DNA of 64,000 nucleotides, from the sequence record MT446410.1; one strand, written 5' to 3'. Source of the DNA: Escherichia virus TH38. The notes below the pieces were generated by a model. The model was not told the origin of the DNA and did not search any database. It was given only the letters and a program-made list of their open reading frames with translations. Of the stretch, positions 38,191 to 63,806 are shown one piece after another. Every line of letters begins with the position of its first letter. The first letter of the stretch is position 1. The position numbers were made by a program, and so were the translations under genes.

Positions 38191-38202
38191 AAGGAATTCC
38201 TG

Positions 38203-38337
38203 CTAATCCTCTGAGTTGTGGGAACAGCAATATTCACATACTCCGCAACATGGACAAATTTCTACACTTGGGTCATATGCATCATCAACTGTCATCCCAC
38301 ACTTGGTGCAGAACACATCGTCGTCTTCTTCCAACAT
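38203..38337 (-). CDS. small Cys-rich protein (44 aa)
   Basis: By-eye ORF MLEEDDDVFCTKCGMTVDD...CPCCGVCEYCC; start overlaps upstream stop (TAATG). Confidence 0.35.
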   Translation of the reverse strand: MLEEDDDVFCTKCGMTVDDAYDPSVEICPCCGVCEYCCSHNSED

Positions 38338-38585
38338 TAATTCTCCAAACAAGAATCATTCATCAGTAGCTCCAAACTATCAAGTGTGTAGTAATAACCA
38401 AAGAATGGGGCTGTTGACTTGGAAACCTTTTTATCAAAAAGAGATTGAGAAAGATTTATTTCTACTCCAGCATCTTCAAGCTGTTGTTTTGTGGGGTATG
38501 TAATGAAAGAGCAAAGCACTTCTGTGTACTCCCCTCTGTCTGTCTCTTCAACACGACTCAGAATCCAAATACTTTTACTAGCCAT
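38337..38585 (-). CDS. hypothetical protein
   Basis: 82-aa ORF. Confidence 0.35.
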   Translation of the reverse strand: MASKSIWILSRVEETDRGEYTEVLCSFITYPTKQQLEDAGVEINLSQSLFDKKVSKSTAPFFGYYYTLDSLELLMNDSCLEN

Positions 38586-38586
38586 T

Positions 38587-39243
38587 TTAACTCTCCAAAG
38601 TTTTCTTCAGAGCTGCCCACGAGATTGGGTAGAGTTTAGCCATCTCTTCATCTAGAGATTTAGCAAACACTCGAACTTCATATTGAGCGTGAGAGGAGAG
38701 TCGCTGACGGCACAACTCAAACCAGCCATACAAAGAACCAGTCCACACCCACTCAGTGATCATCCCCTGAGGAAGAACAAATCGAGCTTGCTCTGGTGCA
38801 ATAAATTCAATCAACTTGTCATATGCTGCTAGAGAAGCTTCATATGCATCATTAATCAACATTAATGCTTCAGCTCGCTCTCCGTCGAGGAGTTGAATCC
38901 CTGAACCTGCATGGAGGTCCGAAGGTCTCGCAAAAATCTCTTTAGGGATGAAGACTTCAACTGCTCCATCTTTATACCGCCGGGACATTTCGTTCCACGA
39001 GAATCCAACCTGATGCTTGCCCAACTGTCTCGCAATTGCGATAGGTGCTTTGCATCGGAAACTGACTTGCGGGTGTCGGAATGGAGTACAGTGTTTTTCC
39101 CGTGCAAGGAAGTTGATAAGTTTTGTGTCTCTCTCATTTAAGTCGCCTTCTCGAACAACACCGAAAGATACTCTAGCTGCATTGACTACAGATTTGTCAC
39201 TACCCATTGCTTCAATCAGTGTTGCTTGTAGTTGTTCGTTCAA
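38587..39243 (-). CDS. thyX: flavin-dependent thymidylate synthase (ThyX-like)
   Basis: ThyX-like core (HCTPFRHPQVSF...ARQLGKHQVGFSWNEMSRRY); canonical RHR motif appears as KHQ. Confidence 0.65.
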   Translation of the reverse strand: MNEQLQATLIEAMGSDKSVVNAARVSFGVVREGDLNERDTKLINFLAREKHCTPFRHPQVSFRCKAPIAIARQLGKHQVGFSWNEMSRRYKDGAVEVFIPKEIFARPSDLHAGSGIQLLDGERAEALMLINDAYEASLAAYDKLIEFIAPEQARFVLPQGMITEWVWTGSLYGWFELCRQRLSSHAQYEVRVFAKSLDEEMAKLYPISWAALKKTLES

Positions 39244-39682
39244 TTAAAAGTTCCTTTTTTCGATTCATGTAAACTTGATGAGCTTCTTCGGCAGTTCCAT
39301 ACATACCTAGATGTATATCTACTTTATCAATACAAATAACAGCCCTATATCTGATAGTTCCTGATCTGTATTTGACAACCTTAACACCTTGAAGCCCTGT
39401 TTCCTTGTTTGATACTCTAGCCCCGAACTGGTTGTGGCAGTTTGTCGAGGTGTCCACCAATCTCAAGTTCTGTATTGAGTTGTTCTTCTTATTTCTATCG
39501 ATATGATCTATCTGAGAAGAAGGCCATTCTCCATAATAAAAGAACCATGCCACTTTATGAGCTTTGTGTACTTTCCCTTTAAACCGCAGGGTTATGTACT
39601 TACTTCGAGTTCCTCCTAATTTCTTACCTTTTCGAAAGAACTCTCCAGTCTCAGGGATATACTCTAAATCATCGATTACCAT
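39212..39682 (-). CDS. HNH homing endonuclease with AP2-like DNA-binding domain
   Basis: KAHKVAWFFYYGEWP...IDHIDRNKKNNSIQNLRL HNH_3 motif and AP2-like YRAVICID...LGMYGTAEEA; inserted between thyX and thioredoxin. Confidence 0.7.
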   Translation of the reverse strand: MVIDDLEYIPETGEFFRKGKKLGGTRSKYITLRFKGKVHKAHKVAWFFYYGEWPSSQIDHIDRNKKNNSIQNLRLVDTSTNCHNQFGARVSNKETGLQGVKVVKYRSGTIRYRAVICIDKVDIHLGMYGTAEEAHQVYMNRKKELLIERTTTSNTD

Positions 39683-49003: not shown

Positions 49004-51034
49004 TTAACCTCTATTCAATGAACATTTAGGAGAATTACAATAAACTTGATTCATAGAACCAAGCGTACAACTTTCAGCATCGCGCCACGGAATCTGCTTA
49101 AAACACTCTGAGCAGTATCCGAGGGTTGACCACATGGCTTTGGTGAAGTCAGTGCTTCGGTTTCCGTCGAAGCTGACAACAGTTTTGCGGAGAGCTGTTC
49201 GTGATTCAGGAAACACACCTGCTTTCTCAGCAGGTTCCTCCTTTTTTGGCTTAGTTGAGATTGCAAAAATACTGTTGCTACGTTTCTCAACATAAGCATC
49301 AACAACATCCTCCAGAGTGATGCCTGTCTGTTTCGCTGAGGAAGGTAATACAGTCATACGACCGATCATTTCTTCAGTTACACGTAAAGCAAACTCAGGA
49401 CGACGGGCGTTTGTTGTATCTGTTGCTTTAATCCAGACATAACCATCTTTGATTGTAGCATTAGATACTTTCTTCTTTACTTCTACAGCGCAGGTTTTAC
49501 AGATATCTTCACCACGAAGACGACTAAGTTCATCATCGAACTCATTTTCTGTTTTAACTTCACCGCAGATTTCACAAACACCAATAGGAGTTTCCTCCTC
49601 CTCTTCCTCTTTAGGTTTAGTCAAACCTTCCAGACATTCAGGATGCCAATAGCACTGATATGCGAAGACTGCTTTAGGTGCATCCTTCCAATCAATGTGC
49701 TTGTCACAACCACCACAATCACCATGAGAGTGTGCTTCCCAGAATTTACGAGTGATAGTAACGCCATTCTTGTTGACGAAACTATCATTCATATCAAAAG
49801 GGATATCATCATCGAAGTCAGCAGTAGTTGACTCAGGCTCCTTTTTCTCCAGAGATGGGTCAACAAAACGACCTGCTGTGATCACTAAACGGACCATAGC
49901 ATTGACTTCGGAGATGCAGGATACTGTCCCACGGTAAACAATTTTAGGGTCTTTCAGTGCATCCTGATAAGCCTTAATGTCTACGTTATGAACATCACCT
50001 TCGATGTACTCTTGAGACTTCTCATCGTAGATATAGCCAATCATCTTACCACGAGAAGGAACAGCACCAGCAGTTGCATAAGGAACAAACTCATGCGGAG
50101 TGATTTCCACAGTCATATCGCGGCGAATATCAATGTTTCGATCGCTTGCGATTTTGTTTTGACTTACCACTGCGTTTCTTCGACGAACGTCTGCCGCTGT
50201 CACTCCCGGCTTCGTGTCGTAAGGATTGCTTGTACTGCTTTTTGAGGAACTTTGATAATTGCTTTGGCTGTAGTTGTTCGAGTAGTAATTGCCCCAACGA
50301 TTGATTACCGTAAAAACCGGAAGCTCGTGGGCGACCTCTTCAACTAGAGTCATACTGTTGTTTGACATGTCAAAGATATACTCTGTACCAACTTTACATT
50401 CAAAGTGCTCGTCAATTCGGTTTTTGTGAGACTTAGAACGCTTCAGAATCCACATCAACATATCTTCTTCAGAAGCACCAAACCAATCTCTGTTACAACG
50501 TGCGAGATGGAAAGGACGCTCTTCGTTACGGATGATATGAAGACGGTTGTCAGAAGCATCATGCCAGATTAAGGTGAAAGCACCATCCAGCTTTTGAATA
50601 GTCTCTGCTGCACCAATAGTGTTAATAGAGTGGCAGATGTTCTCACTGTCTACCTCGAAGTTTTTGCTGTCAGGTAACAGATCTTGGTCCATCAAGGTTC
50701 CGTTATGAACCAGAGTGATGTTACCATGTTGGAAAGGATGGGCGTTCTTGGCGTTAACTGCACCTTTCGTTGCATGACGGCTGTGACCAACAATCCATGA
50801 AGGCGCTACAGTGTACGCTGTTTCACCAGTGGTATGCTTCTTGTACTCATCTTGTAGGATGAATGCGAAAGAAGGAAGAGCTTCTTTATAAGTGAAGACT
50901 TCCTTAGTGCTTTTACGCTGACCAAAGATACCGGAGGAATGTTGTCCTCGGAATACTCCAGCATAAAAGAGTTGGTTGAATACGTCTAAATCAGTGCTTG
51001 ACAGATTACCGCCAGCTAATACGATGCCACAAAT
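49004..51034 (-). CDS. class-II glutamine amidotransferase (Ntn) fused to Cys-rich C-terminal domain; probable ATT start
   Basis: Frame open 113 codons upstream of listed TTG start to in-frame stop at 51038-40; translation begins (ATT)-CGIVLAGG...RGQHSSGIFG...GHSRHATKG...NAHPF...VHNGTL = GATase-II motif set with Cys directly after initiator; RBS AGGTGG 8 nt upstream of ATT. Confidence 0.6.
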   Translation of the reverse strand: MCGIVLAGGNLSSTDLDVFNQLFYAGVFRGQHSSGIFGQRKSTKEVFTYKEALPSFAFILQDEYKKHTTGETAYTVAPSWIVGHSRHATKGAVNAKNAHPFQHGNITLVHNGTLMDQDLLPDSKNFEVDSENICHSINTIGAAETIQKLDGAFTLIWHDASDNRLHIIRNEERPFHLARCNRDWFGASEEDMLMWILKRSKSHKNRIDEHFECKVGTEYIFDMSNNSMTLVEEVAHELPVFTVINRWGNYYSNNYSQSNYQSSSKSSTSNPYDTKPGVTAADVRRRNAVVSQNKIASDRNIDIRRDMTVEITPHEFVPYATAGAVPSRGKMIGYIYDEKSQEYIEGDVHNVDIKAYQDALKDPKIVYRGTVSCISEVNAMVRLVITAGRFVDPSLEKKEPESTTADFDDDIPFDMNDSFVNKNGVTITRKFWEAHSHGDCGGCDKHIDWKDAPKAVFAYQCYWHPECLEGLTKPKEEEEEETPIGVCEICGEVKTENEFDDELSRLRGEDICKTCAVEVKKKVSNATIKDGYVWIKATDTTNARRPEFALRVTEEMIGRMTVLPSSAKQTGITLEDVVDAYVEKRSNSIFAISTKPKKEEPAEKAGVFPESRTALRKTVVSFDGNRSTDFTKAMWSTLGYCSECFKQIPWRDAESCTLGSMNQVYCNSPKCSLNRG

Positions 51035-51113
51035 TTTCTAATCCACCTGAAGGGTAAACCCTTTCATCTAATTAACCTTTAAATTGTGCCCCTTTATCAG
51101 AGGCACCCATTGA

Positions 51114-52217
51114 TTACAGCGCTTGCTCTAACTGATTTTCCAGATGGTCTGGAATGTACCCTGTGATATTGCTATCACTGTGACCTGACTCACGTAGTAA
51201 GTCAAAAATAGCACGGATACGCTGTTCTGGAGCGTGTCTTACTTGAGATAGGTCTGCTGTACGAAGCATAACCAGAATCTCTTGGTACAAATTGTTAGCG
51301 TTCCCTCGGACATATCCAAGGAATCCGTAGAAGTCTGACATATGACGTAAGTCAACAAGAACATCTCCGTTGGAGTTAGTTCTACGTAAACGAATACGAC
51401 CAGACTGTTCTACTTCATGAGAACGGCAATACAAAACATCACGGGCCATACAATACCCTGAATGCAAATCAGATTCATCCAGATTGTAATCTAGAGGAAG
51501 ATAAGGAAGCATTGGGGCGAATCGTACAGTATTTAAATGCTCAACAAACTGATCGTTGCTCATATCTGCGTTATCTAAAGCCAGCTTCTTCAACATCAAG
51601 AATCGGTTAACCAGATTGAGAAGTTGACCACGTTTCCACTTAGGCTCGCTGATACGGAACTCAATCGAACCGTATTGGGCAAGTGGCAGAAGGTTCAGGG
51701 ATGTATACTTATCCCATGAACGAACCAGACGGTTGAAGAACTCTTCACCATCGTAGTTAAATGCGTCAGAGGCATTCATTACCTGTGCTTGTACCACTGC
51801 AAATGCAGGGCAGAAGTTGCTACGGTAACGATGGTAGCCTGAACACTTGAACAACATCTTTTCATAGAAGGTCCAAGCGAGAATGGTTTTCTTGAGGATA
51901 TTACTATCAGCATCCCTCATATCCATATGAACGTGAGTAGAGCAACGCCAAGTCCCCTCGGCGTGCGATTCAGCTACTGCTTCACTCAGGTTGTTGATAG
52001 CGTCTAACAACTCCTGTCCGTTGTAAGGTCGTGAACATACCATTTCACAACCGTTACGCAGGGAACCATCCTCTGTGCAATCCCACATATCTGCTTCGAT
52101 ATGTTCAGAACCTTCGAGTTCAAGTTCAATACCGACACCGCACTGAAGTGCAATTGAACTATGCGCCTCAGTTAAACGACCTTCTCGATATCCAAAAGTT
52201 TGCGCTACAGTTGTCAT
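51114..52217 (-). CDS. GS-like amidoligase (COOH-NH2 ligase family) candidate
   Basis: GVGIELELEG (GxExExE) and EDGSL motifs; 367 aa. Confidence 0.4.
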   Translation of the reverse strand: MTTVAQTFGYREGRLTEAHSSIALQCGVGIELELEGSEHIEADMWDCTEDGSLRNGCEMVCSRPYNGQELLDAINNLSEAVAESHAEGTWRCSTHVHMDMRDADSNILKKTILAWTFYEKMLFKCSGYHRYRSNFCPAFAVVQAQVMNASDAFNYDGEEFFNRLVRSWDKYTSLNLLPLAQYGSIEFRISEPKWKRGQLLNLVNRFLMLKKLALDNADMSNDQFVEHLNTVRFAPMLPYLPLDYNLDESDLHSGYCMARDVLYCRSHEVEQSGRIRLRRTNSNGDVLVDLRHMSDFYGFLGYVRGNANNLYQEILVMLRTADLSQVRHAPEQRIRAIFDLLRESGHSDSNITGYIPDHLENQLEQAL

Positions 52218-52831
52218 AACGAATCCACCAACGTAATATTATAATTGCTAAGGTTTTCAGAGATGTGATGAAAATGTTCCAGAAGTCGCATCGGTTGTTG
52301 ACCGTAAGAGTCACGAGGCGCTTCCAGATCTACCTGACCTACCAGTGCACCTTTATAATGCACTTTACCATCTGTAGGATTGATGTAAATATAACGAGTA
52401 ACCAATCCATCAAATTCAGGATTGAACAGACTGTAAACCATTTCACCAGAGATCGAACGACCAATCCCCGGAGCGTTTCGAATCTTGTTACCCATCAAAC
52501 CCTTCGCTCTCTGACGAACAGGATTGATATGAGTCCAGCTTACAGTGTTACCGTTATGGAACAGATAACCAACATCAGGTGATTCGAGAATCAAGGTTGG
52601 GTCGAACACTGGAATATTCATCGTAGTGTTTCGGAGATTCCCATGCTCGTTCTTGTACCACTGCTCTACAACAAAGTACAGAGCCTGTTCTGCTTCATGT
52701 GAGAAGTCATCGCTGCGGAAGTTACCGCTCTGCTCAACACCAATCACAAAACACGGAAGGTTGATATTACCTGCTCGTTTAGCAATCCATGTACCATTAT
52801 AGTAATGAGAAAAATCAGCTATTAAGCTCAC
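52214..52831 (-). CDS. hypothetical protein in ligase operon
   Basis: 205-aa ORF, start overlaps upstream stop. Confidence 0.4.
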   Translation of the reverse strand: MSLIADFSHYYNGTWIAKRAGNINLPCFVIGVEQSGNFRSDDFSHEAEQALYFVVEQWYKNEHGNLRNTTMNIPVFDPTLILESPDVGYLFHNGNTVSWTHINPVRQRAKGLMGNKIRNAPGIGRSISGEMVYSLFNPEFDGLVTRYIYINPTDGKVHYKGALVGQVDLEAPRDSYGQQPMRLLEHFHHISENLSNYNITLVDSL

Positions 52832-52840
52832 GATAACCTC

Positions 52841-53647
52841 TTATGCTACCTGAAGGAGTTTGATCTGCTGGTCCGCTTCTTTAACGTTGTTGCCGTTAAT
52901 GATTTCATGAAGCTTCTCAATCGGAAGGCGAGAGTGCAATGCCATCAGAGTGGACATATCACACTGCTGAACAACCTTGTCAACCTGATCGTAAACAAAC
53001 TTACGGTTTTCACGATCACTAATCCAGAAGTTAGACAGTGAACGGTATTCAATACCATAGTCTTTATAACGGATTGCAGAAGCTTTGCCGTACAGTTCTT
53101 TACGGCGAGTATCTTTATCCATAATAACTGCTGGGAGTGACAGGAAGTAGTCACACAGCACACCCAGCATCATCTGAGTTTGCAAAGTGATATCCAAAGC
53201 ACCAACTACGCCAAGATGTACGTGACCACCGGCAGTACGAAGCCCTTTATTCTGAGAAGTCGGGGATGGATTCTTCTGACCAGTGAAAGCGTTAAAATCA
53301 GGAGTGCATCCGAAGATGAACGCTGATTCATTGAAAGTCTTCATCTCTTCTTCAGTGAAGATGTGAGAGCTAACACCCGGAGCTGTTTCCATGTCCAGTT
53401 TGTTCAGGACATTGTTGGTGAGATCGATACCACGTTGCATGTTATCGTTAAACGCTTCAAAACCGCTCTGTGGGTCAATATCAAACTCAGCCAGTACATT
53501 GTCCTCTTGAAGACGAACATCCTTAGCCAGAGTGATCTTATCATCCTTAGAACAACCTAACAGACCAGCTACAGAGGTGATAATACCATTACTGGTACGA
53601 ACAAACATTTCAGGGTCAGAGCCGATAAGGAATTTGCGCTTAGTCAT
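52841..53647 (-). CDS. possible second amidoligase-like protein
   Basis: N-terminal FLIGSDPEMF resembles G-x-E-x-E strand; otherwise unassigned. Confidence 0.3.
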   Translation of the reverse strand: MTKRKFLIGSDPEMFVRTSNGIITSVAGLLGCSKDDKITLAKDVRLQEDNVLAEFDIDPQSGFEAFNDNMQRGIDLTNNVLNKLDMETAPGVSSHIFTEEEMKTFNESAFIFGCTPDFNAFTGQKNPSPTSQNKGLRTAGGHVHLGVVGALDITLQTQMMLGVLCDYFLSLPAVIMDKDTRRKELYGKASAIRYKDYGIEYRSLSNFWISDRENRKFVYDQVDKVVQQCDMSTLMALHSRLPIEKLHEIINGNNVKEADQQIKLLQVA

Positions 53648-54611
53648 TGTAATACTCCACTAGTTCAGAAAAGAGAGATGAGATTGTGTTACCAACTTCT
53701 TCAAGAGTAAGACCGGAATCTGCTCCAGTTCTTTGAATCAGTCGGGCTGTAAAGTTTTGTACTGTAATGTTTCCCAACTTGTCGTCTATTGCTTCACGTT
53801 TGTGACCATAACAGTTGGACCAGAGTCTTAACCACTCTGACATTGTTTCATACTCGTCCGGGTCTTGATCTTTAGCACGAGCAAATCTTCGTAAGGCATC
53901 TTGGTTATGGTTACGAACATAACCGTTCTCGTTGTCGCCAACACCGAAGGGGTTTTGAACCCATACTTGCTTCGTGTATTCATCAGAGTCTACAACCAAA
54001 GGAAGGAATGCTGCTGCTGACATATTGTTGTTAATAACAATAGAGGTGCTCTCACTACTCCCATTGGCTCTTCCTCGTTGAGACCATCCACCGAAGAAGT
54101 CACGACCCAACCCAGCTAACACTAGAGCGATGCCGATGCGTTTACGCTTCAGCCACTCTTCCCTGTCTTCAATTCCTTCTGCTAGGAAATCCATTCCACG
54201 ATATTGCCCTTCCAGAATACTACGAAAGAGCATAAGTCCTGTGAAGATCTGATCTGCTGGATGCTCACGAAGGTTGACAGCAACACTATTCGCTGAAGTG
54301 ATCGTAAATACGTTACGATAGCAAGACATAGAGTTCATAACGTCTGCTGTTTCAACCAACCTCTCTTCAATATCAGATGTATCATAACCGTGAAAAGAGT
54401 GAGTCCAGTAATTCAACATCTCCAGCTGCAAGTTGATATCACGGTTGAAGCGTCTCCAACGCCCATCTTCCGAGATAACTTCACCATTAATGTCATTTAC
54501 ACACTGGCCTTGCATGTAGTTGTGGATACCGAAGCACCCACGACCTAAGAACTTCTGTTCCCCTAAATCCTGTTGAAGATTAAGAGGTACGATCGTTGTG
54601 GAGATTGACAT
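53640..54611 (-). CDS. hypothetical protein in ligase operon
   Basis: 323-aa ORF. Confidence 0.4.
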   Translation of the reverse strand: MSISTTIVPLNLQQDLGEQKFLGRGCFGIHNYMQGQCVNDINGEVISEDGRWRRFNRDINLQLEMLNYWTHSFHGYDTSDIEERLVETADVMNSMSCYRNVFTITSANSVAVNLREHPADQIFTGLMLFRSILEGQYRGMDFLAEGIEDREEWLKRKRIGIALVLAGLGRDFFGGWSQRGRANGSSESTSIVINNNMSAAAFLPLVVDSDEYTKQVWVQNPFGVGDNENGYVRNHNQDALRRFARAKDQDPDEYETMSEWLRLWSNCYGHKREAIDDKLGNITVQNFTARLIQRTGADSGLTLEEVGNTISSLFSELVEYYND

Positions 54612-54621
54612 AACTAACCTT

Positions 54622-55815
54622 TTATTTTCCTAAAAATAATCCGCTCATAACACCATCCCACTCAGAGGATGGAATCACTGAATACTCCGAACTTTGGTCC
54701 AGAGTTCCGCTACTGAATCGCTGAACAATATTATAAATATTGAACATATCTTTAGTCTCAGCGCGATAAGCGTAGACTAATCTGTCAGCTGTTCTTTCAT
54801 CTTTAGATACCCGACGAGCAAAGGTAACCAGAAGGTTGTCACCTTTGAGTATTTCTGACTCATCTTTTACTAGATCAGGGTGCATAACCGGCAAGAACAT
54901 TGAGTTGTTCACTCGTAACTCTGCTGTTTCGTCGTTCTCATAATGAATCCACTTAAAATCTTCATCACGAAAGTGACCGCATCCATCTCTGTATGACTGT
55001 TGACGCCAAGGAACTTGAAATGCTTCAGCGTATTTATCAGCCATGCCGACTGTAAACAGCGACGCTGGGAAGATACAAGCATCCCAATCGTTACCAACCA
55101 GAGTTGCTTTCGTTTCCCCTAAGAGGTTAGTGTAAGTACTAACCATTCGTGAGTAAACGTAAGCCTGAAGAATTGTCCAGCCTTCAACCAACCATTTATG
55201 GAGGAAGGTTTCAACTTGACTCTCTTCATCTTCACAATAGAAGGTTCGGTCTAACATCAAATAGAACAGACAGCGATCAGCAGGGATGTTCTCAGTTGCT
55301 ACCCCCATAAAACCTTTTTCGTGCCAGCGTAAACAGGAGGGACGATCTTTGTCCACAAATGCTTCCATAGCTTCCAGTACAGCACGAGGTGTGGTTCGAT
55401 GTTCAGGGTTTTTGTCGTTCCAATGTTCGATGTTATTTTTAAGCTCGCCTTCGTAATCAATAGCACCCCAACCTAAAGCTGCGGATACAGGTTTTTCGTC
55501 ACGCCAACGTCTAAAACCTAACATCTTCATGTGAGTTCCGGAGTTCCAGATATGCTTGATTTTACACATATCCATCTCTCTGCTTAGCAGGAACTCTTCC
55601 CCATCAGCACTACGAACGTTAGCTTCTTCGTGCCACACTCGAACGTGCATATTCCATCCATGAGTTGCCTCATACATGTTAGGGTCGAAGTATTCATCTT
55701 CGTCATCATCTTCATCAACGCCACCATTATAGTTGCGAAGTTGAAGGAACCCATAACAAGGAGGGTTGACCGTTAAAACATTACCTTCAGTATCTTCTAA
55801 TGTTACTGGAAACAT
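54622..55815 (-). CDS. hypothetical protein in ligase operon
   Basis: 397-aa ORF, first large gene of operon. Confidence 0.4.
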   Translation of the reverse strand: MFPVTLEDTEGNVLTVNPPCYGFLQLRNYNGGVDEDDDEDEYFDPNMYEATHGWNMHVRVWHEEANVRSADGEEFLLSREMDMCKIKHIWNSGTHMKMLGFRRWRDEKPVSAALGWGAIDYEGELKNNIEHWNDKNPEHRTTPRAVLEAMEAFVDKDRPSCLRWHEKGFMGVATENIPADRCLFYLMLDRTFYCEDEESQVETFLHKWLVEGWTILQAYVYSRMVSTYTNLLGETKATLVGNDWDACIFPASLFTVGMADKYAEAFQVPWRQQSYRDGCGHFRDEDFKWIHYENDETAELRVNNSMFLPVMHPDLVKDESEILKGDNLLVTFARRVSKDERTADRLVYAYRAETKDMFNIYNIVQRFSSGTLDQSSEYSVIPSSEWDGVMSGLFLGK

Positions 55816-56575: not shown

Positions 56576-56818
56576 CTATTTATTCCCACCAAATGCGAGA
56601 TAAGCATCCTTGATCTCAGTAACCTGTGAATCAGGTTTGAATGCAGATAGGTGTCCTGTGTTCAGGTTAACTGCGTTGGCAGGGATGATGCAACCCTCTA
56701 CTTTAGTGTCAGGGATTTTCATGTAGTAACTTGAAAAGTGCTCTGCTGAGAAAACTTCCCCAATAGAGATATCACTAATCTTCGCTAGAACATCCTTAGT
56801 TGGTTGCCCTATTTTCAT
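56576..56818 (-). CDS. small protein, GDVF-family paralog
   Basis: ISIGEVFSAEH motif shared with paralogs. Confidence 0.4.
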   Translation of the reverse strand: MKIGQPTKDVLAKISDISIGEVFSAEHFSSYYMKIPDTKVEGCIIPANAVNLNTGHLSAFKPDSQVTEIKDAYLAFGGNK

Positions 56819-57051
56819 TACTCACCTTTCTTAGCACGATCTTTGGCAGTTTTGCCAGTTCGGATGCGATGGGAAACGTTAACCAGAGTGCCACCTTCAA
56901 CAATGGTAACGCTCTTGTTCTTGGCAATGTCAAACACAGTTTTCTCTGTACCGCCCAGACGAATCTGTTTAGGTTCGCTGAAGGTTTGGGTTGATTTGGA
57001 TTGGAACTGGAACGGCTGGCGGATTTCATCGATTGCGCTTACTTTAGACAT
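56818..57051 (-). CDS. hypothetical small protein
   Basis: 77-aa ORF. Confidence 0.35.
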   Translation of the reverse strand: MSKVSAIDEIRQPFQFQSKSTQTFSEPKQIRLGGTEKTVFDIAKNKSVTIVEGGTLVNVSHRIRTGKTAKDRAKKGE

Positions 57052-57078
57052 AGGGGAAATTCCTTAAAAAGTTATGGC

Positions 57079-57102
57079 TGCGTAGAGGGAATTCCCTACG
57101 CA
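57079..57102 (-). terminator. palindromic hairpin / terminator
   Basis: TGCGTAGAGGGAATTCCCTACGCA perfect palindrome, T-run on - strand side. Confidence 0.5.
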
Positions 57103-57285
57103 AATTGGGACGCCCACAGAGAGGCGTCATAGTACTAAAAGAGGTACAGAAACAGGGGTTATTTAGCTACCTTTTTCTGTCCGTTTATGAACCAGATAAT
57201 TGAACCGTCAGGCTGTCGTTGACCGAAGCCTTTCTGGTTAATCATATCGTCATAAGAATATGCTTTACGTCTCATTTGTTTTCCC

Positions 57286-57531
57286 TTACATTGGAGTTAA
57301 GATGATCTCTGCTTTGGCAAACTTCTCACCGACTTCGAGAGTATCAGCAACAGGACGAGGTACACCAGTACCCAAACAAACAGCCCTTCGATACCCACCA
57401 GATGCAGTCATCATCAAATAAATGACCTGATTATCATCTTCTTTTAAAGTGAAGATATCAGCGATTGACAGGTCTTTAACAAAGAGTTTCTTTTCTTCTT
57501 TGTGACGAACCTTGATATGTATTGTGCTCAT
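57286..57531 (-). CDS. small protein, GDVF-family paralog
   Basis: LSIADIFTL motif. Confidence 0.4.
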   Translation of the reverse strand: MSTIHIKVRHKEEKKLFVKDLSIADIFTLKEDDNQVIYLMMTASGGYRRAVCLGTGVPRPVADTLEVGEKFAKAEIILTPM

Positions 57532-57533
57532 AC

Positions 57534-57821
57534 CTACTCCTGAACCACAGACATACGAATCATTTCCACCGGAGTGTCACCCTTCATAACACCCAGCACA
57601 CCAGTAAGTAGATTAACTGTAGTAATCCAACCCTCTTCTACAGAGATCTTGTTGGACACGTTATTAACACGCATATAATACTGAGGTGATGCCGTGCCCC
57701 GCTGAACTACGAAAGGGTTTCCGGGGATGATGGTATCTAGTGGATACGTGTTATCTTTAATCTTAGGGATAATTTTCATATTATTTACCCTGAATAATAA
57801 GTTTGGATTCGAATAGCTCAA
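57534..57821 (-). CDS. hypothetical protein
   Basis: 95-aa ORF. Confidence 0.35.
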   Translation of the reverse strand: MSYSNPNLLFRVNNMKIIPKIKDNTYPLDTIIPGNPFVVQRGTASPQYYMRVNNVSNKISVEEGWITTVNLLTGVLGVMKGDTPVEMIRMSVVQE

Positions 57822-58011
57822 CAGTATTGGTCAGAGGAACTGGAAAGAAAATATCTTTAGAGTTCCGAACACCCATTGCAGAGTGATCCCCTGTTTTTAT
57901 CCAGAATTTAGCGATTACGTCGTTACCAGTAAAACGGAAAACATCTCCATTCTCTAGGTCAGAGAAAGTCTTGGAGGGTGCTTTGCTTTTTGGTACTAGC
58001 TCAAAGTTCAT
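57781..58011 (-). CDS. small protein, GDVF-family paralog
   Basis: LENGDVFRF motif. Confidence 0.4.
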   Translation of the reverse strand: MNFELVPKSKAPSKTFSDLENGDVFRFTGNDVIAKFWIKTGDHSAMGVRNSKDIFFPVPLTNTVELFESKLIIQGK

Positions 58012-58019
58012 ATTGATTC

Positions 58020-58331
58020 CTATTTAAGTTTGAGGCTAATGTTAAGGTGCATACATGCCCTGTTCTGTACAGCAGCATAACTTCTACCGAGCATGTCTGC
58101 CATTCTCTGAATAGGCATGAACCCAGCATTACGGATAAGGAACTGGTCTTCTTCTTCAGACCACTTAACTCGGATTGAAGCTCTTGATATTCCGAATTTA
58201 GTGCAAGCTGTGTTAACAGCATTCTCCGTTACATTCATAATCTGAGCAACTTCTTGAACCGAGTACTCTTTGATTAGTCTCCGAAGATTTTCAATCTGCA
58301 TCGGAGTCCATATAGTTCTTCGAGCTTTCAT
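58020..58331 (-). CDS. HTH DNA-binding protein (putative transcriptional regulator)
   Basis: Two HTH-like segments (YSVQEVAQIMNVTENAV; MADMLGRSYAAVQNR). Confidence 0.45.
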   Translation of the reverse strand: MKARRTIWTPMQIENLRRLIKEYSVQEVAQIMNVTENAVNTACTKFGISRASIRVKWSEEEDQFLIRNAGFMPIQRMADMLGRSYAAVQNRACMHLNISLKLK

Positions 58332-58621
58332 ACATCCTCCAATTAAATATTTATGTAAGACTTGCTTAGATAAAGATTCAATAAAATAGGGGGAGGGGAC
58401 GAATCCTCCCTTATCCTATTAGTTAATATTGCATGTAAGATCTAACAATCGGTTGCCTTTGTAGGAATAAGCGTAAAGCCAATCCAGCACTAAACTCCCG
58501 CCCCCTTAGTGGGCTGGGTTATTAAAGGGTAACGCCCTTATGGGCTAGTTACATGAATGTTAGTTTGATAGGAGATCTGAAGTCCTATCTCAAAGGACTC
58601 TCGTAAGAATCCTTCACGATA

Positions 58622-58879
58622 TTACTTAAAGATAAAATGCATAACTGCGTCATATGCTTTAAACAGAAGCCAACCTATTGGATAAAAAACTCCTGCCAGT
58701 ATTGAGATAGGCCACAACACAATTAAGAGCACAACCATCATCTCATCAGGTTCAGAGCTGGTAGACCCTGTTGTAATGACCCCTTTTAGTAGACCTTTCT
58801 TGTATAGCAGTTTCAGCACTAAAACAGAAAGGAATACTCCAATAAAGTAAACTGAGATAAAAATATCAAGTAAACCCAT
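58622..58879 (-). CDS. small membrane protein (2 TM)
   Basis: Hydrophobic segments FISVYFIGVFLSVLVLKLL and VVLLIVLWPISILAGVF. Confidence 0.45.
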   Translation of the reverse strand: MGLLDIFISVYFIGVFLSVLVLKLLYKKGLLKGVITTGSTSSEPDEMMVVLLIVLWPISILAGVFYPIGWLLFKAYDAVMHFIFK

Positions 58880-59031
58880 TTAATCGTCTCTTACTTATTC
58901 ATCTCTCGTCGGCTATCTCTCCAAGCCAACCAAGTGTAGGTTTTCAGTTCTTCAAAGTCTTCTGGAGAGAAGAGATAATCTTTGAAGGTGTCCCCAAACC
59001 ACTCTAAAAATTCTTCAGTCATAAGATTCTC

Positions 59032-59205
59032 TTAACAAGATTGATCACAAGGCTGATCTCCACATGTTTTACAGATCACTGGTGAGTAACTACAGGCAGG
59101 ATATACTGACACCCCATCAAATGTCTCACACCCACAATCAGGGCATGTACCGTTGGATTCCATGTCATCATCGTCATCTACTTCACCGCCACCAAAACAA
59201 CTCAT
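59032..59205 (-). CDS. small Cys-rich zinc-binding protein (57 aa)
   Basis: By-eye ORF with strong RBS aaggag; MSCFGGGEVDDDDD...CPDCGCE...CKTCGDQPCDQSC. Confidence 0.4.
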   Translation of the reverse strand: MSCFGGGEVDDDDDMESNGTCPDCGCETFDGVSVYPACSYSPVICKTCGDQPCDQSC

Positions 59206-59214
59206 ACAGGCTCC

Positions 59215-59505
59215 TTAGTAAACTAAACCTACAACCTTTGCGTTGGATTGAGGAGTGACTTCAGCGGCTGGACGAAATCCGTCAACAACGCCGTTGCAGA
59301 TGTTGATGCAGGTAATATACCCTCCAACCTCTTGGTCGCCCTTAATCCAAAAACCATTATCATGTCTAAAAGCACTCCCACTAAGAAGTGTAGACAAAGG
59401 AACTACTGGTAATGTTTGCTTAGCTTCAAATAACATAATAACCTCAATTATCGTAGCATGTATCCCAATACATGTAGTTAACATATGTTCTCGGTTTGAG
59501 TCCAT
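59215..59505 (-). CDS. hypothetical protein
   Basis: 96-aa ORF; overlaps next ORF so true start may be internal. Confidence 0.3.
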   Translation of the reverse strand: MDSNREHMLTTCIGIHATIIEVIMLFEAKQTLPVVPLSTLLSGSAFRHDNGFWIKGDQEVGGYITCINICNGVVDGFRPAAEVTPQSNAKVVGLVY

Positions 59506-59698
59506 ATATGATGAAGTGAGTCTTCTTAATCCTTTCTTTCAAGGTATAATAAAGTCCATCACTGAAGTTACCAATCTTTACTTGGAAACGTAAAGAGCGG
59601 GCATCCATTCGAAGCATGGAGTTTAACTGGAACTTACTACCCCCAGCCATCTCTTCAAGAAGCTTCTTTGTATTCCAATAATGAGCTGTCATATACAC
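59444..59698 (-). CDS. hypothetical protein
   Basis: 84-aa ORF. Confidence 0.3.
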   Translation of the reverse strand: MYMTAHYWNTKKLLEEMAGGSKFQLNSMLRMDARSLRFQVKIGNFSDGLYYTLKERIKKTHFIIYGLKPRTYVNYMYWDTCYDN

Positions 59699-59862
59699 CT
59701 CAATGTCTTAGGGTTACTGATGAAAGATCTCCTACTGAGTACTCAAGAACCTCTTTCACAGGGTATTCATTCCCTGAAGGTTCTTCGATGTAGACGATAG
59801 CATCTGGACCACAAGTAACAGATAAGTTTTCAAGAGTTCTAATGAGTTCTTCAATAGTCACA

Positions 59863-60162
59863 TTACCACTCCTTACCGGTTGTTGTTACAGAACCGCCAC
59901 ACCACAACGCTGTATCGATCACAACATTGTCTGGCGTAGACTTCTCTTCGTTGATAGAAGGGTTAGCATTAGAGCAGGTTGCCCCGTTGTAGCGCATATC
60001 AATATCACCACTAGGAATCTTGTTTCCTGAATGCCAGCGAGATACACAAATACCATCCACTGCTACTGCACACCACCCATCAGGGCGGCTCTGTACGCAG
60101 CCTGTAAGGGCCACACAGACAAGGAAGATACAGATTAAGGATATTACACCACCCCAACTCAT
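59863..60162 (-). CDS. Cys-rich lipoprotein
   Basis: Signal peptide with lipobox LTGC (ISLICIFLVCVALTGC); 99 aa. Confidence 0.5.
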   Translation of the reverse strand: MSWGGVISLICIFLVCVALTGCVQSRPDGWCAVAVDGICVSRWHSGNKIPSGDIDMRYNGATCSNANPSINEEKSTPDNVVIDTALWCGGSVTTTGKEW

Positions 60163-60182
60163 AATTAACTCCTATTAGATTT

Positions 60183-60260
60183 GGTGGACTATCTGGAATC
60201 GAACCAGAAGCTCACTAAGAAAGTAATTCCCACTGTTATAAAAGCACTTGCCTCAACAGG
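60183..60260 (-). tRNA. tRNA-like element (T-arm plus acceptor 3' strand plus CCA); full cloverleaf not resolved by eye
   Basis: - strand TCTGG-TTCGATT-CCAGA T-arm and ...CCACCA 3' end; no matching 5' acceptor strand found by hand. Confidence 0.25.
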
Positions 60261-60303
60261 GATACACTAACTCTGGTGCCGCACCCATACTAGCCCTAAA
60301 TGT

Positions 60304-60380
60304 GGTGCGCCCTACAGGACTCGAACCTGTAACCAATAGCTTAGAAGTAAAGTTTCTATCCTTGTAATGAAGTTTTCATT
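60304..60380 (-). tRNA. tRNA-like element / possible degenerate tRNA-Arg copy
   Basis: - strand ACAGG-TTCGAGT-CCTGT T-arm, acceptor AGGGCGC-A-CCA, anticodon-loop-like CTTCTAA identical to neighbouring tRNA-Arg; 5' half does not fold. Confidence 0.25.
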
Positions 60381-60381
60381 G

Positions 60382-60456
60382 TGGCGTTCCCTCGTGGAAT
60401 CGAACCACGAATAAGAGCTTAGAAGGCTCCAGTTATATCCGTTTAACTAAGGGAAC
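60382..60456 (-). tRNA. tRNA-Arg (anticodon UCU)
   Basis: Hand-folded cloverleaf: acceptor GTTCCCT/AGGGAAC, D-stem GTTA/TAAC, anticodon stem GGAGC/GCTCT with loop CTTCTAA, T-arm CGTGG-TTCGATT-CCACG, encoded CCA. Confidence 0.7.
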
Positions 60457-60462
60457 ATTACA

Positions 60463-60813
60463 ATGAAAACTTGCACAACCTGTCACACCCAAAAGGAAGA
60501 TTCAGATTTTTACAAGAAAGGAGATCGACTTCATTCTATGTGTAAACAATGCTTCAATGCCTACTGTATTGAACGTTGGAGACAAAGAAAGACTCAAGCG
60601 GTTAAAGATTTCGGAGGTAAGTGTCATGACTGCAACCAAGAGTACCCAGATGCAGTCTTTGATTTCCACCACCTAGATCCCTCTGAAAAAGATTTTGATT
60701 GGAATAAACTTAGACTCCGATCTATTGACTCTATCAGAGAAGAGTTAAGCAAGTGCGTAATGCTCTGTGCTAACTGCCACCGTATTCGTCACATTGATTG
60801 CTCTGTCCATTGA
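60463..60813 (+). CDS. HNH endonuclease
   Basis: CTTCH...CKQC zinc finger and FDFHHLDP...CANCHRIRH HNH motif; only + strand gene within - strand block, next to tRNAs. Confidence 0.7.
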   Translation: MKTCTTCHTQKEDSDFYKKGDRLHSMCKQCFNAYCIERWRQRKTQAVKDFGGKCHDCNQEYPDAVFDFHHLDPSEKDFDWNKLRLRSIDSIREELSKCVMLCANCHRIRHIDCSVH

Positions 60814-60833
60814 GCTAAGGGTGCTAGATTTGT

Positions 60834-61043
60834 TTAACTAAAGATACGAATGGCTACATCGTGACCAATATGACCGGGAACTTTATGCTGTTCTATTTTC
60901 AAACAGTGTTTACAGATACGAGATACACGAGATTCTTTTCTCTCGACCGGAGTGTCTTTAGCGTGGGTGATATGTAGGTTCTCAGTGATCACCCACTCAT
61001 GTTTGCACTCAGAATCTTTGGGCTTTTTCTTACGAAAGAACAT
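60834..61043 (-). CDS. small zinc-ribbon protein, tandem family member
   Basis: Start at internal ATG (MFFRKKKPKDSECKHEW...ICKHC). Confidence 0.4.
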   Translation of the reverse strand: MFFRKKKPKDSECKHEWVITENLHITHAKDTPVERKESRVSRICKHCLKIEQHKVPGHIGHDVAIRIFS

Positions 61044-61051
61044 AACACCCC

Positions 61052-61216
61052 TTAGATCAGATCTGTTTTCTTGTGCAGACCACACACTTTACAGCGAGAG
61101 TAGATACGCAACCCTTGTCGCTCTCTGTCAGTAAGTTTATTTGTGATCGTCAGTTCATAAGTATGAAGATCTTCCCACTCATGGAAATGAAATAGACGTT
61201 TGAACCGTTTAATCAT
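61052..61216 (-). CDS. small zinc-ribbon protein, tandem family member (54 aa)
   Basis: By-eye ORF MIKRFKRLFHFHEW...CKVCG; RBS aagga. Confidence 0.4.
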   Translation of the reverse strand: MIKRFKRLFHFHEWEDLHTYELTITNKLTDRERQGLRIYSRCKVCGLHKKTDLI

Positions 61217-61225
61217 AATGATTCC

Positions 61226-61387
61226 TTAGATTACATCACGATGACTAACATCACCACACACCTTACACTGGATAATGTAACGTGTGCCCTTGTCATTGTT
61301 CCCATCTGAATCTGTATAGACCAGAGGACGGGTGTTAATAATCTTCCAATCATGACAATGGAAGACACGCTTTAGCCACTTGAACAT
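61226..61387 (-). CDS. small zinc-ribbon protein, tandem family member (53 aa)
   Basis: Start at internal ATG (MFKWLKRVFHCHDW...CKVCG). Confidence 0.4.
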   Translation of the reverse strand: MFKWLKRVFHCHDWKIINTRPLVYTDSDGNNDKGTRYIIQCKVCGDVSHRDVI

Positions 61388-61394
61388 ATTAACC

Positions 61395-61646
61395 TCAAGC
61401 ACAAGCAGGGAGAGTGATGATTTTATACTGACCTTCGAACTCTCCAAACAAACCCAAGAATGTAGGACTGTAAGTACCAGTACAAACAAACTCATCAAAC
61501 AGTGCGTTATAACTAGGCTTGATCTTCCAAGCCCATACATAGCCCATCTTGTCAATTGCAATGTAACGAGTGTTCAGAGGAACAGTCATCATTACACCGT
61601 CAACTTCGATCACTTTAGTGATTGGTGCAGCTTGAAAGTTTTTCAT
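61395..61646 (-). CDS. hypothetical protein
   Basis: 83-aa ORF. Confidence 0.4.
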   Translation of the reverse strand: MKNFQAAPITKVIEVDGVMMTVPLNTRYIAIDKMGYVWAWKIKPSYNALFDEFVCTGTYSPTFLGLFGEFEGQYKIITLPACA

Positions 61647-61819
61647 ACTTTACCTTTAATAAAAATATCATTGCCACAGACACAGCATGAACGAACAACA
61701 GTAGCGCCACGCTGAACGATACGAACCTCTTCTTTAACCAGATTAACACGAGCACCGCAGCAAGGGGAGTTGACATAAGAGTAACCAGCTTGCGTATGTT
61801 TGATTGTTTGCTTAGACAT
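61643..61819 (-). CDS. small zinc-ribbon protein (58 aa)
   Basis: By-eye ORF ...SPCCGARV...SCCVCGND; stop overlaps next ATG. Confidence 0.35.
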   Translation of the reverse strand: MSKQTIKHTQAGYSYVNSPCCGARVNLVKEEVRIVQRGATVVRSCCVCGNDIFIKGKV

Positions 61820-61873
61820 TTTAGCTTCCTCTTGTTAGTTTAAGTAAGAGTTGTCCCTTAATTAAAACAACAA

Positions 61874-61893
61874 AGGCCGCCCGAAGGCAGCCT
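61874..61893 (-). terminator. rho-independent terminator (- strand)
   Basis: AGGCTGCC-TTCG-GGCGGCCT then T-rich tract on - strand. Confidence 0.6.
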
Positions 61894-61897
61894 CTCT

Positions 61898-62149
61898 TTA
61901 TTGACTCACACCACGAATCAGATGATTCTGTAGCGTACCGTCTTCTGCATTATACAGGAATGCGAACATCAACTCCTTAGCCACATCTCTTGAGCAATTA
62001 AGACACTTAGAGATTTGAGTTAGTTGCATGTTACGTTCAGTGTGTTCCATCAAGGCAATGCGAATGATCTCTCGCATACCTATTACATGAACTGTTTTAA
62101 CCGGCATAGGTCCAATTACCTTGCTTGTTACGAATGGCTGACATTGCAT
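61898..62149 (-). CDS. hypothetical protein
   Basis: 83-aa ORF. Confidence 0.4.
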   Translation of the reverse strand: MQCQPFVTSKVIGPMPVKTVHVIGMREIIRIALMEHTERNMQLTQISKCLNCSRDVAKELMFAFLYNAEDGTLQNHLIRGVSQ

Positions 62150-62595
62150 GAATCCAGAAGCCTTCCAGTTTCAGAGCACCGTTAGCTACTGCATCCATAC
62201 GTTCAGGGCGGTTCATACGTTTGGTTGATACTTTCATACCTATCTCTCTTTGTTAGTGGAGGCATTATTGCCAGTTGATATAAGGGATAGCCCTAGTCAG
62301 TAGACTAATCCTGACCGCGTACTCATTGCCGACCCTCTCTGCCTAAGAGTTCAGGTTCTAGAGCTATCTCTTATTCCAACTGGTGAAGACTCCCTACCCC
62401 TAGGAAGTCTCCTGAATCCCAAACTAATACGTACCCCTACATATCAGAAAGTCTTTCGAAAATTAACAGGTTTTAGTCTAGCACCGGATGTTCGAGCAAG
62501 CTCTCCCTAGCGGTGTGGCATATGCCTGAATTAATAAGTTAATGAGGAACACCCTCACATAGCCCTCTGATAAACACAAGGGCTATAAGTCGGTG

Positions 62596-62814
62596 TTACT
62601 TTTGGGATAAACACAGATCGGGACGTGGCATAACAGTGGTTGATAGACCGAAGACTTCAACATAACCACTGCTCAAGTTAGCAGCCTTACACAAACCATC
62701 AGGGGTTTTATCTTCTAGCATCAGCCAGAAACGTTTATCGTAAGAGAAAACATCACCACCTTTAACATCTTCTGCATTTGCATATTTAGGATAATCAACT
62801 ACTTTAATTTCCAT
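62596..62814 (-). CDS. small protein, GDVF-family paralog
   Basis: VKGGDVFSY motif. Confidence 0.4.
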   Translation of the reverse strand: MEIKVVDYPKYANAEDVKGGDVFSYDKRFWLMLEDKTPDGLCKAANLSSGYVEVFGLSTTVMPRPDLCLSQK

Positions 62815-62824
62815 CTACTTACCT

Positions 62825-63043
62825 TTATTGATTGATGGTTAGATGAACTAACTTATTAACATGGGCGAAGTTAGGAAGGATTTGCATCTCGTTGTTAAGG
62901 ATATTAAAACAACGAACCCCGCCCTCTACAGCATAGGCAGATTTCTGAAACAAGCTACCTCTCCACACAAATACATCATGTGTTTCAAGAGATCGCAACT
63001 GAACAGCTTCATCATCAATCTTTTTCTCAATGTTCATATTCAC
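62825..63043 (-). CDS. small protein, GDVF-family paralog
   Basis: LETHDVFVW motif. Confidence 0.4.
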   Translation of the reverse strand: MNMNIEKKIDDEAVQLRSLETHDVFVWRGSLFQKSAYAVEGGVRCFNILNNEMQILPNFAHVNKLVHLTINQ

Positions 63044-63294
63044 TTCCGATTAGTAATAACAACGTCATGAAGAAGAACAACCTTGCTTTTCGAGCTAAGT
63101 TTAAGGACTTGCTTATTTGTCAGACTAAGGACGACACAACCCCCATCAGAAGGCTTGGTCTCTTCAATCTGTGAGGTAAATAGCTGAACAACCATGTAGA
63201 AATCTGCTCGTGTTTCCCTGATTTGGAATACATCCCCAAGTTTGAGATCACCAACACACAAAGACGGTTCATTTACTTCAAGATTAATCTTCAT
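63040..63294 (-). CDS. small protein, GDVF-family paralog
   Basis: LKLGDVFQI motif. Confidence 0.4.
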   Translation of the reverse strand: MKINLEVNEPSLCVGDLKLGDVFQIRETRADFYMVVQLFTSQIEETKPSDGGCVVLSLTNKQVLKLSSKSKVVLLHDVVITNRK

Positions 63295-63544
63295 CTTTAG
63301 CCTCTATGTTGGTTATATGGAGATCACTGCGTACTTGGCAAACTTCATCCCGTTTAAAAGGCATGAGCTTTCCAGTTACCACATCAACACAGTTGACATA
63401 ATTGTCTGCGTACAATGTGTCGGTTCTGATGTAAAGGGATTCTTTACGCTCAAACAGAACCCCCGGCTTCATGTTATTTAATCGAAGCATTGTACGATCA
63501 GATTTAATATTAACTTTCACTGTTAATCTCCTGCTGCTTAGCAA
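63284..63544 (-). CDS. small protein, GDVF-family-like paralog
   Basis: MKPGVLFER motif (divergent). Confidence 0.35.
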   Translation of the reverse strand: MLSSRRLTVKVNIKSDRTMLRLNNMKPGVLFERKESLYIRTDTLYADNYVNCVDVVTGKLMPFKRDEVCQVRSDLHITNIEAKDED

Positions 63545-63806
63545 TAGCTACTCGCAAGTCTTCATTAGCACGAGCAAGTCGTAATACTTCATGGTTGAGG
63601 TTCTGAAGACGCTCATTTCTGTCTTCAACTTGCATAATAAGATCATTAAGTGTTACTTTAACTTTCTCATTATACATCTCATCCACTCGGACTAGAGATT
63701 TATACATTCTCTCCCAGCTTGCTGCTTTGTTTCTGAGAACAATAAACCCTATAACGCTGATAGTTAAACAGCTTACAAAAAGGAATTTATATACCTCTAA
63801 AGTCAT
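63510..63806 (-). CDS. small membrane-anchored coiled-coil protein
   Basis: N-terminal TM (FLFVSCLTISVIGFIVL) followed by charged helix. Confidence 0.4.
   Translation of the reverse strand: MTLEVYKFLFVSCLTISVIGFIVLRNKAASWERMYKSLVRVDEMYNEKVKVTLNDLIMQVEDRNERLQNLNHEVLRLARANEDLRVAIAKQQEINSES

Follow-up and report, generated by a model that had tools for sequence, protein, structure and literature searches.

Nine small genes on the minus strand of Escherichia virus TH38 (MT446410.1) encode true paralogs of one protein family with one predicted fold. They lie at positions 56,576–63,544 of the stretch of 64,000 nucleotides (nt) that we analysed, hereafter the window, and we refer to them, in ascending order of position, as A, B, X, C, Y, D, E, F and G. 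An earlier note, made from the letters of the window without database searches, had singled out "at least six or seven" such open reading frames (ORFs) by a shared N-proximal motif. All seven for which it quoted a peptide are present on the minus strand exactly where it placed them, with that peptide in each; two further members, X (57534–57779) and Y (59215–59436), had been missed.

The shared motif itself is statistically supported. In its loose form, [LIVM]..[GAH][DEV][VIL]F, it occurs in 11 of the 654 six-frame ORFs of the window against 2.4 ± 1.6 in shuffled sequences, and seven of the 11 are the ORFs named in the note; the strict form, L..GDVF, was observed three times among the same 654 ORFs, with 0.07 expected. 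When hidden Markov models (HMMs) are trained on eight copies, the copy left out ranks directly after the training members among all 654 ORFs (E 7.2e-11 to 4.3e-3), and the best non-member in these searches has E ≥ 0.07. An outside profile, built from 78 non-Kuravirus metagenomic sequences each less than 38% identical to any Kuravirus member, returns the nine window ORFs as its top nine (E 3.6e-19 to 7e-7). As the 78 sequences were first found by a Kuravirus-seeded profile, full independence cannot be claimed for this result; they are, however, of natural origin, and every copy in the window matches them on its own. The next-best ORF in the window, a GGCT-like gene at 46240–46677 (E 0.0066), gives fragmentary alignments and was rejected as a tenth member. 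Scans against PHROGs place each ORF in its own group (E 1e-24 to 1e-48) and also return cross-hits of the copies to one another's groups (E 1e-3 to 1e-9): phrog_6570 is reached by A, C, Y, D, E and G, 7431 by A, X and G, 8365 by B, X and F, 7832 by Y, F and G, and 12612 by A and B. It was these scans that brought X and Y to light and placed the starts of X, Y and G downstream of those of the mechanical ORFs. The cross-hits, the HMMs and the alignment agree that the similarity of the copies is full-length and extends beyond the motif.

The family consensus is MKI..k.....F.dL..GDVF.....yYMK.......NAVNL.TGe...F.....V.p..A.LvI. Positions conserved family-wide are the N-terminal MKI, F14, L17, G20-D/E-V-F23, Y32-M-K34, N48-A-V-N-L52, T/N54-G55, F60, V66, A72 and L74, and these columns consist mainly of alternating hydrophobic strand residues and turn glycines. 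By column counts, F23 is present in 131 of 131 sequences and an aromatic residue (Y/F/W) occupies position 32 in 130 of 131, with K/R34 in 82% and D/E21 in 81%. The nine copies carry the signature G20, F23, aromatic 32, V/I50-x-L52, G55 and V66, within which F23 is invariant, G20 is replaced by A in B and by H in E, and C, E and F have another residue in place of G55. From copy to copy, the loops that follow F23 and YMK differ in sequence and in length (~5 to ~18 residues). Because the strand and turn residues are conserved and the loops vary in this way, the domain can be read as a scaffold with a variable surface. The proteins are acidic to neutral, with a median isoelectric point of 5.3 in the family and values of 4.9–8.1 in the window copies.

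Structure prediction suggests a five- or six-strand SH3-like small β-barrel that begins at the initiator methionine. The AlphaFold2 model of A, made from a 27-sequence alignment, has a mean predicted local distance difference test score (pLDDT) of 80 and a predicted template modelling (TM) score (pTM) of 0.69, with strands at residues 10–13, 22–24, 31–38, 47–51 and 65–69; that of B, from a 100-sequence alignment, has a pLDDT of 87.4, a pTM of 0.71 and five strands in the same order as A. The earlier note had raised unrelated folds as an outcome that would speak against the grouping, and the two models share one fold. Both have the five to six antiparallel strands of the SH3-like small β-barrel class. 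Foldseek searches of the PDB return mostly Tudor, myosin SH3, PWWP and chromo domains, together with some LexA C-domain entries. The resemblance to SH3-like barrels (Tudor, KOW, ribosomal L2) is weak, and no close solved relative was found there; ORF041 of Staphylococcus phage 37 (PDB 2p84), a 133-residue chain, has 8% identity and no sequence-level relationship to the family. The BFVD models that A matches, at TM scores of 0.6–0.8, are of uncharacterised proteins, some from the same phage group and others from N4, 7-11, PaP3, tf, and Vibrio, Proteus, Providencia, Morganella and Erwinia phages; the same-group matches of 81, 73, 72 and 77 amino acids (aa) would, by their lengths, be other paralogs. 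We compared the family with the SH3-like class as represented by Tudor, chromo, PWWP, KOW, the ribosomal L2 C-domain, EF-P/eIF5A domain I, FeoA, HspQ/YccV, VapX and CarD-RID. The family differs in having no corresponding Pfam match and no demonstrable aromatic cage, KOW motif or basic nucleic-acid surface, and in a barrel whose first strand, the conserved MKI, begins at Met1.

An exhaustive profile search yielded 2,495 representatives of 50%-identity clusters at E ≤ 1e-3, most of which are single-domain proteins of 67–85 aa; a word-indexed homolog search returned orthologs only. Two-domain fusions account for about a dozen of the top 150 matches, and a few long proteins contain several copies. 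HMM searches identify N4 gp21 (E 1.7e-17), PaP3 ORF65 (E 3e-7) and LUZ24 gp7 (E 4.6e-10) as family members, and the first two also match the model of A by predicted structure. One confident copy each was found in PaP3 (whole genome), N4 (first 30 kb) and LUZ24 (first 9 kb), as against nine in the Kuravirus window. The source databases label every member hypothetical or uncharacterised. No match above noise was obtained in Pfam, NCBIfam, PADLOC or the PDB sequences, with single sequences, with a 107-member profile or, for Pfam, with all 107 members. In particular, the PADLOC defence models recognised none of the nine copies nor N4 gp21; the Pfam Tudor, chromo and PWWP models gave no match at E ≤ 1 among the 107 members; and of the KOW/EF-P models (PF00467/PF08207), only EFP_N is touched, by one of the 107 at E 0.015, below the gathering score, and by none of the nine. 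Known anti-defence families in Pfam (including DUF2829/Tad2), NCBIfam and the PDB sequences were likewise without a match, no dedicated anti-defence library having been searched.

The nine window proteins belong to PHROGs 6570, 7431, 12612, 16423, 8365, 7832, 10911, 33163 and 9955, all of 'unknown function'. PHROGs keeps these as nine separate groups, whereas here they form one superfamily of ~2,500 clusters with 6–9 or more copies per Kuravirus genome. As a sequence family it is new; its fold class, and the kind of gene that encodes it, the small early ORFans, are already known. So far as the literature searched goes, the union of the nine groups under one SH3-like predicted fold, the reach of the superfamily into N4-like phages, LUZ24-like phages and thousands of metagenomic clusters, and its arrays in Kuraviruses are all new; searches on Kuravirus paralogs and on anti-defence or toxic proteins of phiEco32 found nothing relevant.

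Multi-copy arrays are not peculiar to Kuraviruses, since unrelated phage contigs carry two to four copies. One metagenomic phage contig (L003) has four within 13 kb, at 6279–6500, 6592–6843, 7965–8219 and 11684–11917, and another (L002) has two adjacent copies, at 4267–4503 and 4458–4736, just downstream of a sigma-factor gene. Giant proteins with multiple hits were considered as clues to function, and only one, P0097, looks like a genuine fusion. It is encoded on the chromosome of a Tenacibaculum metagenome-assembled genome (L016 3583–5019; L017 7001–8437), in a housekeeping context (LpxK, NTP transferase, RF-1), and joins an N-terminal SprT-like metalloprotease to five tandem barrel copies rich in Lys and Arg (YELPIGSVFEYKNTLYKKGEKKRTRY.CLKL...). 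It represents a cellular form of the phage domain that may bind DNA. The match of P0189, which consists of RCC1 repeats, is most likely spurious, and Pfam shows nothing informative in P0108, P0132, P0133 or P0139.

The 8-kb early region of the window has matches at 90–97% identity in over 100 podophages of Escherichia, Shigella and Salmonella, from the phiEco32/SU10/NJ01 group (Kuravirus and relatives, Gordonclarkvirinae). The minus strand carries genes from ~25 kb up to the window end. In phiEco32, the leftward block beyond the middle genes is an early class defined by experiment; it is also the most variable part of that genome and has a probable role in host takeover (PMC8948821). Its SU10 counterpart, coding sequences (CDS) 69–125, has sigma70-type promoters (PMC4281155). 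The family genes of the window are syntenic with phiEco32 genes 95–98, 104 and 113–115 and with SU10 CDS 96–98, 102 and 111–114, which places them inside this published early block, as the earlier note had supposed of its ORFs. Early expression of the TH38 family would follow by homology to the phiEco32 early class. About 30 small genes occupy the 8-kb block, nine of them from the barrel family. One run consists of G, F, E and D (63520 to 62596), whose stops and starts overlap or nearly abut; a second consists of C, X and B (58011 to 57286), followed by a conserved non-member (56818–57051) and then A. Both runs are translationally coupled, Y is a singleton, and all nine copies have a Shine–Dalgarno-like sequence 6–10 nt upstream of the start.

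We compared the genes with those of nine relatives: CHD5UKE1, EK5, TH06, MN05, Bas91, NJ01, SU10, phiEco32 and KBNP1711. Each relative has 6–9 copies, a lower bound given the small, stringent profile. The family is unusually variable between these related phages in both presence and allele. HMM searches detect G, F, D, Y and X in all nine, while B is matched by tblastn in every one and exceeds the stringent HMM threshold in six; E occurs in three of the nine, A only in KBNP1711, and an ortholog of C only in phiEco32, the C slot being filled in the others by a different family member. Most relatives have a further member, in the phiEco32 gp109 slot, that is absent from the TH38 window, NJ01 and SU10 have an extra member upstream of G, and KBNP1711 has two Y-type genes in tandem. 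The A slot is a hot spot of cassette exchange: in phiEco32, SU10 and Bas91 it holds a 465-nt membrane-protein gene, and the small flanking gene at 56818–57051, which lies between members and is not itself one, is strongly conserved, at 94–95% identity in all nine relatives, with a ratio of non-synonymous to synonymous substitution rates (dN/dS) of 0.04–0.11.

Pairwise Nei–Gojobori dN/dS values are 0.04–0.33 for the family and 0.0–0.8, mostly <0.3, for 20 control genes; D, at 88–97% identity in all nine relatives, has values of 0.05–0.22. Given this range, the copies are functional genes under purifying selection. Measured gene-wide, the values give no footing to the proposal in the earlier note that the proteins diversify under selection, as those of the family lie in the same range as those of neighbouring early genes. 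B, X, Y, F and G each fall into two allele classes, one at ~90–100% and the other at 54–70% amino-acid identity, with synonymous divergence saturated in the divergent class. This pattern points to old alleles swapped in by recombination rather than to fast local divergence.

The multiplicity of the family is also ancient, and the recent intragenomic expansion envisaged in the earlier note is contradicted by the comparison with other phages. Every copy is nearer to its homologues elsewhere than to the other copies in its own genome, with 26–67 bits and 29–49% identity to representatives from outside the group and 14–22 bits within the genome. Recent tandem duplication was rejected on this ground, since the most distant relatives of each copy are those that share its genome. 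The array is probably maintained by exchange.

In our view there is about an even chance that these proteins are early, non-toxic binding modules of an old SH3-like family, with a different target for each copy; we infer both the binding and the targets, and most of the weight is carried by the structural and evolutionary part. The reading draws on the early position of the genes, their cassette-like turnover, the conserved scaffold with variable loops, and the non-toxicity of LUZ24 gp7, the one family member for which we found experimental data. Of 13 early proteins expressed in Pseudomonas aeruginosa, gp7 included, four inhibited growth, and gp7 was not among these (PMC4635203). Each copy would be a stand-alone module, made early in infection, with a variable surface that binds a host (or phage) macromolecule of its own. 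Binding could modulate or neutralise the target without killing the cell, making the protein an accessory factor of host takeover or counter-defence. The set behaves like a stock of exchangeable cassettes: from one related phage to another, a copy may be there or missing, or its place may be taken by a deeply diverged allele. A small protein with this type of role is already known in the same phage group: phiEco32 gp79 (~80 aa), a switch protein that binds RNA polymerase, has a four-helix fold and binds the N-terminus of β′ and the C-terminal domain of gp36 (PMC12276001). A link between gp79 and the family was rejected, as the family is all-β in the models, gp79 is helical, and phi32_79 lies outside the paralog region.

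Several points weigh against the binding-module reading. No experiment, informative fusion or neighbour points to a target. The conservation of D/E21, K/R34, N48, N/D51 and T/N54, together with F23 and aromatic 32, may reflect one ligand shared by all copies. Gene-wide positive selection, which an arms race might have left as its signature, was not seen in the pairwise Nei–Gojobori comparisons with the nine relatives, and no family member was among the 34 proteins detected by proteomics of SU10 lysate concentrated with polyethylene glycol (PEG). Buried and exposed positions were deduced from strand periodicity alone. A bolder version, in which an unnamed phage superfamily serves as a general, evolvable binder scaffold with a conserved SH3-like core and variable loops, stocked in arrays and swapped as cassettes, with each copy directed against a different host or immune factor or signal, strikes us as rather unlikely. 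If true, an unrecognised set of counter-defence tools would be common to Kuravirus, N4-like and LUZ24-like phages.

The main rival is that all copies have one function and recognise, through a conserved site, a single kind of ligand, with nucleic acid and RNA polymerase as candidates, on the model of the Tudor-like domains of CarD, Mfd and UvrD or the KOW domain of NusG, with the copies acting as hetero-oligomers or as variants in dosage or specificity. We consider this unlikely but a serious possibility. Polar and aromatic positions are kept over ~130 very divergent sequences (F23 100%, aromatic 32 99%, K/R34 82%, D/E21 81%, N48, N/D51), although these may be no more than residues of the core and the turns; dimers are suggested by the two-domain fusions and by genes that lie in adjacent pairs; and the five basic tandem copies in the SprT-like protein are compatible with DNA binding, whereas most members are acidic to neutral, which is atypical of nucleic-acid binders. 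This phage group re-programmes RNA polymerase through gp36 and gp79 (PMC12276001). The weak structural resemblance to RNA polymerase-binding Tudor-like and KOW domains could be cited in the same sense, but the matches spread over many functional classes and the Pfam KOW, Tudor and SH3 models find no match.

Other explanations fare worse. Oligomeric barrels that sequester immune signalling nucleotides, as Tad1, Tad2 and Acb2 do, with one signal per copy, would suit proteins that are small, early, multi-copy and, to judge by LUZ24 gp7, non-toxic, and the invariant aromatic and polar residues could form a pocket. This support is circumstantial, the family has no likeness to known sponge families in Pfam (including DUF2829/Tad2) or among the PDB sequences, and the loci examined show no linkage to defence genes; we regard such sponges as improbable. 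Slightly less probable again is that the genes encode virion or morphogenesis accessory proteins, or are neutral, non-functional ORFan cassettes. SH3-like small barrels are known in phage head–tail and decoration proteins, one giant protein has a faint Phage_attach match, and some relatives dispense with copies. However, the family genes belong to the early block, whose orientation is opposite to that of the late genes, none was detected among PEG-concentrated SU10 particle proteins, dN/dS is well below 1, and the family is conserved across distant phage families. The probability that unrelated short ORFs merely share a short hydrophobic motif by chance is negligible. Pairwise BLAST between copies is weak (14–23 bits) and four ORFs outside the family carry the loose motif as well, yet the leave-one-out and outside HMMs refute chance resemblance, with E-values down to 1e-19 and a clean gap from the 645 other ORFs; the PHROG cross-hits that link the copies, their common predicted fold and a full-length alignment with conserved positions along the whole domain all argue in the same direction.

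Most early genes of virulent phages are ORFans, an obstacle to functional annotation, and many 'hypothetical proteins' here collapse to one domain, which could be defined at the level of a domain of unknown function (DUF). The family is tractable: its members have ~75 residues, are predicted to be well folded, include one non-toxic protein and occur in model phages (phiEco32, N4, LUZ24 and the BASEL Kuraviruses). If the copies do bind host or defence factors, cassette variation between near-identical phages could help to explain host range, which is relevant to phage therapy.

The individual members, all on the minus strand, differ in how closely they approach the family profile; for each we give the PHROG matches, then the E-values of the leave-one-out and outside searches. 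A (56576–56818, 80 aa, ISIGEVFSA) is the closest of the nine to the family consensus (phrog_12612 9e-30, also 6570/7431/16423; 7e-11; 3.6e-19), and B (57286–57531, 81 aa, LSIADIFTL), which has AGGAG 6 nt upstream of its start, is the most divergent (phrog_12612 6e-40, 8365; 4e-3; 7e-7). X (57534–57779, 81 aa, IIPGNPFVV) has its true start at ATG 57779, inside an ORF of 57534–57821 (phrog_7431 2e-31, aligned from residue 15; 9e-6; 4.5e-10). Next in ascending position is C (57781–58011, 76 aa, LENGDVFRF; phrog_10911 4e-34, 6570 1.6e-5; 2e-5; 3e-7). Y (59215–59436, 73 aa, LLSGSAFRH) likewise truly begins within a longer ORF (59215–59505), at ATG 59436 (phrog_6570 5e-24, aligned from residue 24; 1.8e-7; 6.6e-13).

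The remaining four form the run nearest the end of the window. D (62596–62814, 72 aa, VKGGDVFSY) has phrog_6570 as its group (4e-32; 2.7e-7; 1e-12). E (62825–63037, 70 aa, LETHDVFVW; phrog_33163 1e-48, 6570 7e-3; 3e-5; 1.8e-11) most likely starts at ATG 63037, the mechanical ORF extending to GTG 63043 and the orthologs beginning MNIEKK. F (63040–63294, 84 aa, LKLGDVFQI; phrog_9955 6e-36, 8365, 7832; 4e-5; 1.1e-11) carries a long insertion in the loop that joins strand 3 to strand 4. G (63284–63520, 78 aa, MKPGVLFER; phrog_16423 4e-48, aligned from residue 9, with 6570, 7832 and 7431; 2.6e-4; 2e-14) most likely starts at GTG 63520, with AGGAG 7 nt upstream, rather than at TTG 63544, to which the mechanical ORF extends. 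The starts of E and G were chosen on the basis of Shine–Dalgarno-like sequences and of the ortholog and PHROG alignments.

Several neighbours of the family genes deserve mention. Between the two runs, at 58020–58331 (minus strand), lies a gene for a 103-aa 'D5-like transcriptional regulator' that matches sigma-70 region 4 and helix-turn-helix models (E 4e-7) and is 97–99% conserved in eight relatives, with 63% identity in phiEco32. The gene at 63510–63806 (minus strand) encodes a 98-aa protein with a hydrophobic N-terminal segment, a coiled-coil-like C-terminus and no Pfam match; several GenBank records label it 'DNA helicase', for which it is far too small, and the label is probably a propagated mis-annotation. 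The sole sizeable plus-strand ORF of the block (60463–60813, 116 aa) adjoins a tRNA-Arg(TCT) gene at 60382–60456 (minus strand). Its product is rich in Cys and His (CxxC ... FHHLDP ... CANCH) and by eye resembles an HNH-type homing endonuclease, Pfam giving only a weak zf-RING_14 match. The slot is empty in EK5 and MN05, and Bas91 has a minus-strand 'homing endonuclease' there that overlaps the tRNA end.

Directly downstream of the small early genes, at ~46200–55800 (minus strand), is a conserved module that encodes gamma-glutamyl cyclotransferase-like, ATP-grasp/'S6 glutaminyl transferase', glutamine amidotransferase, amidoligase and COOH-NH2 ligase proteins. The same order occurs in the distant Pseudomonas phages PaP3 (31900–39600 of the compared locus) and LUZ24.

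The block also contains a second family of small minus-strand paralogs, at 61052–61216, 61226–61387 (starting MFKWLKR inside an ORF of 61226–61561) and 60834–61085. These proteins are rich in Cys and His and zinc-ribbon-like, with the motif F.H.W ... C(K/R).CG and no Pfam match. The first two are 37% identical over 54 aa (E 7e-10, local set), with a weaker match for the third (E 0.012). As in the barrel family, there are two deeply diverged allele classes among related phages, at ~95% versus 37–56% identity.

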